A DNA stretch of 64,000 nt, taken from the NCBI RefSeq assembly GCF_054482525.1, contig NZ_CM137006.1, one strand, 5' to 3'. The translations under genes and the position numbers were made by a program. This document shows, piece by piece, positions 26,250-26,300 of the stretch. The stretch's first letter is position 1. The number at the start of each line of letters is the position of its first letter. The notes under the pieces were generated by a model, which saw only the letters and a list, made by a program, of their open reading frames with translations, ran no database searches and was not told the origin of the DNA.

Positions 26250-26300
26250 TTTTCCCCTCACCCTAACCCTCTCCCCAGAGGAGCGAGGGGACCGATCGCG
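26250..26300. repeat. GC-rich intergenic repeat (boxC-like), short copy
   Basis: cccctcaccctaaccctctcccc..gaggggaccgatcg shares a ~40 nt core with the element at 45421-45575. Confidence 0.5.

Follow-up and report, generated by a model that had tools for sequence, protein, structure and literature searches.

BoxC repeats in the tusA-zntA and ugpB-ugpA intergenic regions of Escherichia coli

Three repeat copies in two intergenic regions

The window, by which we mean the whole 64-kb stretch of Escherichia coli DNA that was analysed, matches strain 1190 with 100% identity and K-12 with 94-97% identity in the regions that served as queries. In this window, the convergent genes tusA and zntA leave a gap of 101 nt between their stop codons, and this gap houses the first copy of a GC-rich element of ~55 bp. 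Its core begins 32 nt past the tusA stop codon, and a terminator-like hairpin abuts the copy downstream of tusA. The 5' arm of this hairpin (GACCGATCGCGC) overlaps with a conserved flank of the element, and the terminator scan found 1 site at this place vs 0.3 expected. The second region lies between ugpB, with its stop codon at 45412-45414, and ugpA, with its start codon at 45590, and it spans 175 nt. Here, the core of a second copy begins 8 nt past the ugpB stop codon, while the core of a third copy stops 24 nt ahead of the ugpA start codon (Table 1).

Table 1. Coordinates of the repeat copies, the neighbouring features and the alleles found downstream of tusA
Feature	Position	Strand	Basis or remark
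tusA, 81 aa	25977-26222	+	ORF list, K-12 annotation
Full copy 1, ~55 bp	26244-26298	-	nhmmer E = 1e-17; conserved flanks in 8-copy alignment
BoxC/TMECO core type A (copy 1)	26255-26289	-	regex test, sequence, K-12 orthologue
Terminator-like hairpin, 12-pair stem, T-rich tail (GCCTTATTTC)	26289-26320	+	terminator scan
zntA, 732 aa	26324-28522	-	ORF list, K-12 annotation
Classical REP/BIME, GCCGGATGCGGCG type core	36477-36596; 42311-42413; 43846-43865		window
Composite inverted A+B pair, ~160 bp	45413-45574	+	occupies most of the 175-nt ugpB-ugpA region
BoxC/TMECO core type A (copy 2)	45423-45455	-	regex exact; nhmmer 45413-45466, E = 1e-15
Spacer between inverted copies, 75 nt	45456-45530	+	sequence, alignment, fold
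BoxC/TMECO core type B (copy 3)	45531-45565	+	regex exact; nhmmer 45520-45574, E = 2e-14
tusA allele 1: BoxC alone			window and K-12
tusA allele 2: BoxC + BIME			EV36, A24
tusA allele 3: BoxC with 8 nt missing from third-block region + BIME			FDAARGOS_1373
tusA allele 4: no BoxC core; BIME + extra 103-aa hypothetical ORF	L005 424-978		TC_EC10
tusA-following sequence, other Enterobacteriaceae	L135 1831-1900; L138 1837-1880; also L136, L137

The element occurs exactly three times in the window, and all 3 of 3 copies are intergenic according to the ORF list and the K-12 annotation. A 19-mer of the core, CTCACCCTAACCCTCTCCC, is present exactly at 26257-26275 (+) and 45425-45443 (+) and with 3 mismatches at 45545-45563 (-), where zero matches are expected from 100 dinucleotide-preserving shuffles of the window. 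The repeat search of the window returned a direct repeat pair (26249-26288 / 45417-45456, 83% ungapped identity) and an inverted repeat pair (26252-26289 / 45531-45568, 89% complementary). The HMM search with nhmmer gave three strong matches, whose E values (Table 1) are partly a matter of construction, as the HMM was made from 8 copies including the three of the window; the next best match in the window had an E value of 0.04, and nothing else was credible. The original prediction, which had proposed a GC-rich repeat common to the tusA-zntA and ugpB-ugpA gaps, thus holds by the 19-mer, the repeat search and the HMM. It had further placed the recurrence at 45421-45575, and a repeat is indeed found there, but it consists of two inverted copies with a 75-nt spacer instead of a single one. 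That prediction had missed that the ugpB-ugpA locus joins a type A with a type B element in inverted orientation, and that this pair is a minority allele which K-12 does not have.

Block architecture of the element

On its G-rich strand, each copy consists of a C-block, a short loop, a G-block, a 3-nt loop and another G-block, with blocks of 9 nt. The C-block CCCTCNCCC pairs with the first G-block GGGNGAGGG to give a 9-bp hairpin, and behind the 3-nt loop stands the second G-block GGGTGAGGG. This loop tells the two types apart, with TTA for type A and CCG for type B elements. Copy 1 reads CCCTCGCTC-CTCTG-GGGAGAGGG-TTA-GGGTGAGGG on its G-rich (minus) strand, copy 2 reads CCCTCTCCC-TTT-GGGAGAGGG-TTA-GGGTGAGGG, and copy 3 reads CCCTCGCCC-CTCTG-GGGAGAGGG-CCG-GGGTGAGGG. 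The loop is therefore TTA in copies 1 and 2 and CCG in copy 3, and the ugpB-ugpA pair has the arrangement A(-) + B(+). In the G-rich strand of each window copy there are four G3 tracts with 3-nt loops, as for example in GGGAGAGGG-TTA-GGGTGAGGG (26255-26289, 45423-45455).

Copies were compared with the pattern CCCTCNCCC-N3-6-GGGNGAGGG-N3-GGGNGAGGG published by Holder et al. 2015 (PMC4666352), with one stem mismatch permitted. Copies 2 and 3 match it exactly, and copy 1 deviates by one substitution in the stem, which is absent from K-12, where the orthologue matches exactly (locus L001, 4685-4719). In 20 shuffled windows the pattern had zero matches, even with 3 substitutions permitted. The alignment of 8 copies revealed GGGGAAAAGGCGGCA and GCGCGATCGGTC as conserved flanks of copy 1, and as these flanks add to the core, the unit is ~55 bp long, which is near the published length of 56 bp.

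Both type A copies are followed by a small second hairpin, GACCGATCG...CGGTTTGC. It is opened by GGGGACCGATCG, which stands after the core at 26284-26295 and 45451-45462, so that the gaggggaccgatcg tail pointed out in the original prediction is genuine. At the start of the ugpB-ugpA spacer, GACCGATCGGCG...GCCGTGTCGGTTTGC forms a hairpin like that at 26289-26320, and the ends of this spacer resemble those of the spacer in the K-12 lldD-trmL pair in an alignment with L131. The K-12 pair also has the arrangement with a second hairpin.

Identity of the repeat family

We think that the three window copies represent BoxC, a non-coding repeat of ~55 bp already described for E. coli and its relatives (probability roughly 0.85). 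BoxC is the same element as PIT (potential intrastrand triplex element), TMECO and HPG1/HPG2. Holder et al. 2015 (PMC4666352) described the above pattern as a triplex motif, TMECO, and stated that it had been "earlier described as BoxC" and then as PIT. They found 23 TMECO motifs in MG1655 (K-12), every one of them intergenic, and distinguished type A with the loop TTA from type B with the loop CCG. Five K-12 loci carry inverted TMECO pairs, and close pairs are always A + B (PMC4666352). Kaplan et al. 2016 (PMC5100583) arrived at the same elements as the G-quadruplex groups HPG1 and HPG2. In their Table 1, the K-12 orthologue of window 26255-26289 appears as HPG1 no. 40 at zntA/tusA, with its midpoint at 3608708. 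The same table has the copy from the fabI (envM)-ycjD gap of K-12, whose sequence is near-identical. A family survey lists 32 BoxC copies for E. coli, with a length of 56 bp (PMC2267715).

The suggestion that the repeat is probably boxC is hence well founded: the name is supported because the TMECO pattern fits, Holder et al. equate this pattern with BoxC, the Kaplan table lists the K-12 copies including that at fabI, and the survey length agrees. The window copies agree with BoxC/PIT/TMECO/HPG1-2 in the three-block pattern, the A and B loops, the pairing of A with B in inverted orientation, the placement between genes and the number of copies per genome. Nothing essential is different from published BoxC, with copy 1 having one extra stem substitution. 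The ugpB-ugpA pair lies outside of the K-12 set of 23 copies and is strain-variable. No Rfam family covers the element, and a scan of the whole window at gathering thresholds gave RyhB alone. A sub-threshold Rfam hit to Hrs13 at the locus (19.7 bits vs a cut-off of 52) was taken as chance.

We presume that the name "box C" was first used for the envM (fabI) region. BoxC is reportedly due to Bergler in 1992 and to Bachellier in the 1990s, and PIT is said to have been introduced by Hoyne and Maher in 2000. As the family has been catalogued since the 1990s and restudied in 2000, 2015 and 2016, the finding of its copies in this window is real but ordinary.

Copy number and alleles in E. coli

A census with the 91-nt query 26230-26320 against 5,426 complete E. 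coli genomes gave the whole-genome copy count that the original prediction had called for: the repeat was found at 85,059 places in 5,425 of the 5,426 genomes. Per genome, there are between 1 and 32 places (median 17), nearly all of them chromosomal (5,425 genomes), and the copies within a genome are nearly identical. With this median and the three window copies between ORFs, the repeat is dispersed and intergenic as proposed. Holder et al. 2015 (PMC4666352) had counted 1 to 29 TMECO motifs between strains and reported that BoxC loci are much more variable than control intergenic regions. Both window loci are polymorphic for the presence or absence of BoxC, and BoxC and REP elements alternate at the same sites, which adds to this report on locus variability.

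The copy downstream of tusA is held at its orthologous position in ~95% of the E. coli genomes, and four alleles were found there (Table 1). The TC_EC10-type allele, which has no BoxC core, was found in 265 of 5,426 genomes (~5% of strains). It was considered as a clean empty site that could define the ends of the element, and this was rejected, because it retains the GACCGATCGCGC flank. In other Enterobacteriaceae, a BoxC-like hairpin or REP-like palindromes are found just past tusA, even when a gene other than zntA comes next. Palindromic repeats repeatedly land, or are retained, at the 3' end of tusA. The RNA fold predicted for the 101-nt tusA-zntA gap has an energy of -49.2 kcal/mol (z = -4.5).

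At the ugpB-ugpA locus, the BoxC pair was found with a coverage of at least 80% in 317 of 5,426 E. coli genomes (~6%). K-12, O157:H7 and most others have instead a 97-nt ugpB-ugpA region with a REP palindrome and no BoxC pair. RNA of 45415-45564 is predicted to form one long hairpin of -79.2 kcal/mol (z = -4.9), and 0 of 200 shuffles were as stable; for the K-12 REP allele, the RNA fold is -49.4 kcal/mol (z = -6.7). The two alleles, BoxC pair versus REP, are natural isogenic-like material for the testing of RNA-level effects. As an observation on the side, window 45415-45589 and the K-12 region (L128 266-362) are unrelated alleles, and the swap takes in the ugpA ribosome-binding region.

Relation to other intergenic repeats

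The element had been judged to be distinct from REP, and the REP/BIME elements of the window indeed have no sequence in common with the BoxC copies. The REP core of the type GCCGGATG..CGCATCCGGC, an imperfect palindrome of ~35-40 bp, is found at 36482 and 43848 and is absent from 3 of 3 BoxC copies. The REP/BIME set of the window also includes a 103-nt inverted BIME pair, 5.7 kb apart, and a 20-nt perfect inverted REP core. REP/BIME elements resemble BoxC in being short intergenic palindromic repeats that are located at gene 3' ends and inside operons and that form stable RNA stem-loops, and they sit at both BoxC sites elsewhere, namely at ugpB-ugpA in K-12 and at tusA-zntA in EV36, A24 and Klebsiella. 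Unlike BoxC, however, REP has an unrelated sequence and possesses neither a third G-block nor any G-quadruplex or triplex potential. REP elements have the RAYT transposase, gyrase and, in some BIMEs, IHF as partners; for BoxC, we know of no partner.

MITEs and REPINs are comparable to the BoxC pair in that an inverted pair with a short spacer gives one long hairpin, and they are likewise multi-copy, intergenic and strain-variable. BoxC differs from them in that it has no target-site duplication, cognate transposase or demonstrated movement, and in that single copies are common. ERIC/IRU elements, too, are imperfect palindromes scattered over the intergenic DNA of enterobacteria, and E. coli has ~20 of them, but by description they are ~127 bp long, unrelated in sequence and far less GC-rich.

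Occurrence beyond the E. coli chromosome

MAGs of Archangium, Afipia, Contendobacter and an unclassified organism (JANYBJ01) each contain multiple copies of the 21-nt pattern CCCTCACCCNNNCCCTCTCCC with its hairpin partner behind it. At least 90 copies of the three-block element were found in the Archangium (Myxococcota) MAG. The JANYBJ01 MAG carries the element inside a longer near-identical repeat of >100 nt, with ~30 copies among the matches listed, two of which are 282 nt apart (L024). Conservation extends to the AGA and TGA bases of the loops, even in distant taxa.

On IncP-6/IncU plasmids, a perfect type A copy is situated between the IS4-like ISApu2 and ISApu1 and outside both. In p30860-KPC (L133 3001-3035) and pFBAOT6 (L134 3001-3035), the two plasmids that were inspected, it lies downstream of a gene for a hypothetical protein of 123 aa. 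A best match of at least 99% identity, mostly an exact one over 35 nt, was obtained for 204 plasmid records, and the hosts are Klebsiella, Aeromonas, Citrobacter, Enterobacter and Raoultella. At least 120 IMG/VR viral contigs contain the 21-nt pattern, and 131 of the 147 matches listed have the full three-block architecture. One of these contigs, IMGVR_UViG_3300033121_000767 (21 kb, L166-L168), has 9 co-oriented copies together with a gene for a major head protein (phrog_212). Holder et al. 2015 (PMC4666352) described the motif as widespread in Proteobacteria and without association with plasmids or phages; the plasmid and viral copies are evidence against the latter statement.

Matches annotated as "Campylobacter phage" (91% coverage) were rejected, since these UNVERIFIED records contain E. 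coli lldD-trmL DNA with its BoxC pair. This concerns Campylobacter phage A18a MG065686.1 (L132 1480-1640) and also MG065691.1, for which contamination or misassembly with E. coli DNA is most likely.

Possible roles of the repeat

With ~20 copies per E. coli genome, blocks that are conserved across phyla, and triplex and G-quadruplex folds in vitro, the BoxC family invites the question of a role. Most likely, it is a structure-prone non-coding repeat that is gained and lost as a block and adds stable stem-loops to transcripts. This reading is favoured because the motif folds in vitro, no triplex is seen in vivo, promoter and terminator activity are reported to be absent, the loci vary locally, and the orientation is unbiased. 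With consensus oligonucleotides, as distinct from the window copies, the single strand formed a hairpin, a purine-motif triplex or a G-quadruplex in vitro, and no triplex was detected in vivo. According to Holder et al. 2015 (PMC4666352), Hoyne and Maher had found PIT elements to have neither promoter nor terminator activity. Holder et al. 2015 (PMC4666352) also noted that K-12 copies have no strand preference relative to the neighbouring genes. In the MAG and viral loci, we counted G-rich vs C-rich orientations at gene 3' ends as 34 vs 31 and as 37 vs 32, a crude count that rests on heuristic ORF calling in GC-rich DNA, where many calls of "inside ORF" are probably spurious. Such an unbiased orientation speaks more for an element that works at the DNA level, or through a symmetric hairpin, than for a signal in one RNA strand. 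A strand-specific RNA role, as a C-rich Rho-loading site or an RNA G-quadruplex, was accordingly given low weight, as the orientation is about even in K-12 and in our own count.

We give a roughly even chance to the view that BoxC is no dedicated regulator and that it is a structure-prone repeat at tolerant gene-end sites, which undergoes block-wise gain, erosion and loss. BoxC would then occupy gene-end sites where hairpins are tolerated, slippage or repair might erode or remove it where the single strand is folded, and recombination could swap whole intergenic alleles and thereby exchange BoxC. Block-wise change is supported by the swap of the whole ugpB-ugpA region, by the coreless tusA allele in 265 genomes, by the tusA allele with the 8-nt loss and by the stem substitution that sets copy 1 apart from K-12. 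The local effect would be at the RNA level, as a by-product or at most as a weakly selected benefit. Near tusA, BoxC would contribute a stem-loop right ahead of the terminator-like hairpin. Between ugpB and ugpA, the hairpin of the pair, like the K-12 REP there, could shield the ugpB message from 3'-to-5' exonucleases, and it may dampen read-through into ugpA. REP in malE-malF has a role in the protection of the upstream mRNA, and by this analogy and from the predicted folding energies, the pair at ugpB-ugpA may have an RNA-protection role.

Going further, one may assume that an RNA-level function has been selected, in which BoxC as a REP-like 3' stem-loop stabilises the upstream mRNA or attenuates transcription. 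We regard this as possible, albeit clearly short of probable. The predicted structures are very stable, and some hairpin is nearly always present at both sites, since REP/BIME palindromes occupy them in other strains or genera. The ugpB-ugpA site, past the binding-protein gene of an ABC transporter operon, mirrors malE-malF, and many K-12 copies in Table 1 of Kaplan et al. 2016 (PMC5100583) are located at operon ends or between convergent genes. However, the same table has several K-12 copies upstream of genes or between divergent genes, the cited statement on PIT elements denies them terminator activity, and a plain hairpin would suffice for such a function, which leaves the third block and its cross-phylum conservation without explanation.

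A rather doubtful alternative is a non-autonomous mobile element of the MITE/REPIN kind, above all for the inverted A+B pair, which would be copied between sites and species by an enzyme encoded elsewhere that recognises a hairpin next to a single-stranded block. The near identity of the copies within a genome, their number of 1 to 32 between strains and the presence/absence polymorphism of loci would all fit, as would the terminal inverted blocks of the pairs with the related spacer ends at ugpB-ugpA and lldD-trmL. The three-block architecture, which is multi-copy in four MAGs and also present on IncP-6/IncU plasmids as well as in at least 120 viral contigs, speaks for it too. A target-site duplication is not visible at the window loci, though: no direct repeat flanks the ugpB-ugpA pair, while the pair does have inverted terminal blocks by sequence and regex. 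Moreover, no clean empty site was found, and the whole ugpB-ugpA region differs between alleles in the manner of an allele replacement by recombination. The position of the tusA copy is stable in the great majority of E. coli genomes, as given above, and an associated transposase was not found. To our knowledge, no transposase has been described for BoxC.

The strong conservation of the two 9-nt blocks and their internal bases across distant bacteria, plasmids and viral contigs is hard to square with a purely neutral repeat, and this sequence comparison hints at a sequence-specific partner or at active copying. It is unlikely, in our view, that all three-block repeats are one horizontally spreading family with a conserved partner, be it a host factor found in all of them or an enzyme that recognises a hairpin plus a single-stranded block, and that this family shares and competes for niches at gene ends with REP. 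This idea derives from the same 9-nt blocks in Myxococcota, in alpha- and gamma-proteobacterial MAGs, on plasmids and in phage contigs, and from the fact that both BoxC sites are REP sites elsewhere.

Kaplan et al. 2016 (PMC5100583) proposed a regulatory DNA switch, in which ions or supercoiling would make the G-rich strand change from duplex to hairpin to G-quadruplex (or triplex) and back, and this would control transcription initiation or termination of the neighbouring genes. Their circular dichroism data, which point to forms that depend on K+ and Mg2+, are in line with this, as are the four G3 tracts with 3-nt loops on the G-rich strand of each window copy and the AGA and TGA loop bases that are kept even in distant taxa. 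Nevertheless, such a switch is quite improbable. The neighbouring genes do not fall into one functional class, and the distance to ORFs and the orientation are inconsistent (Holder et al. 2015, PMC4666352). In vitro, the double-stranded TMECO does not leave the duplex form, and DMS footprinting in vivo revealed no protection (PMC4666352). PIT elements reportedly lack promoter or terminator activity, and both window loci are dispensable, with BoxC-free alleles in hundreds of strains.

That the similarity is a chance product of low-complexity C-rich sequence without any family could be suspected from the simple composition of C/T-rich and G/A-rich runs, but the chance of this is negligible and we consider it refuted by the empty shuffled windows, the 85,059 places in E. 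coli, the pattern test, the three matches at E < 1e-13 to the HMM that includes them, and the conserved loop and flank bases.

Other features of the window

The gene for the small RNA RyhB was located at 52120-52184 (+), where it matches Rfam RF00057 over its full length with 83 bits. The window further contains two pairs of direct repeats, 35306-35605 / 37416-37715 and 36291-36426 / 38407-38542, which have 70-73% identity and lie ~2.1 kb apart. These are probably paralogous genes, and by map position the genes near 35306-38542 are likely livJ/livK.
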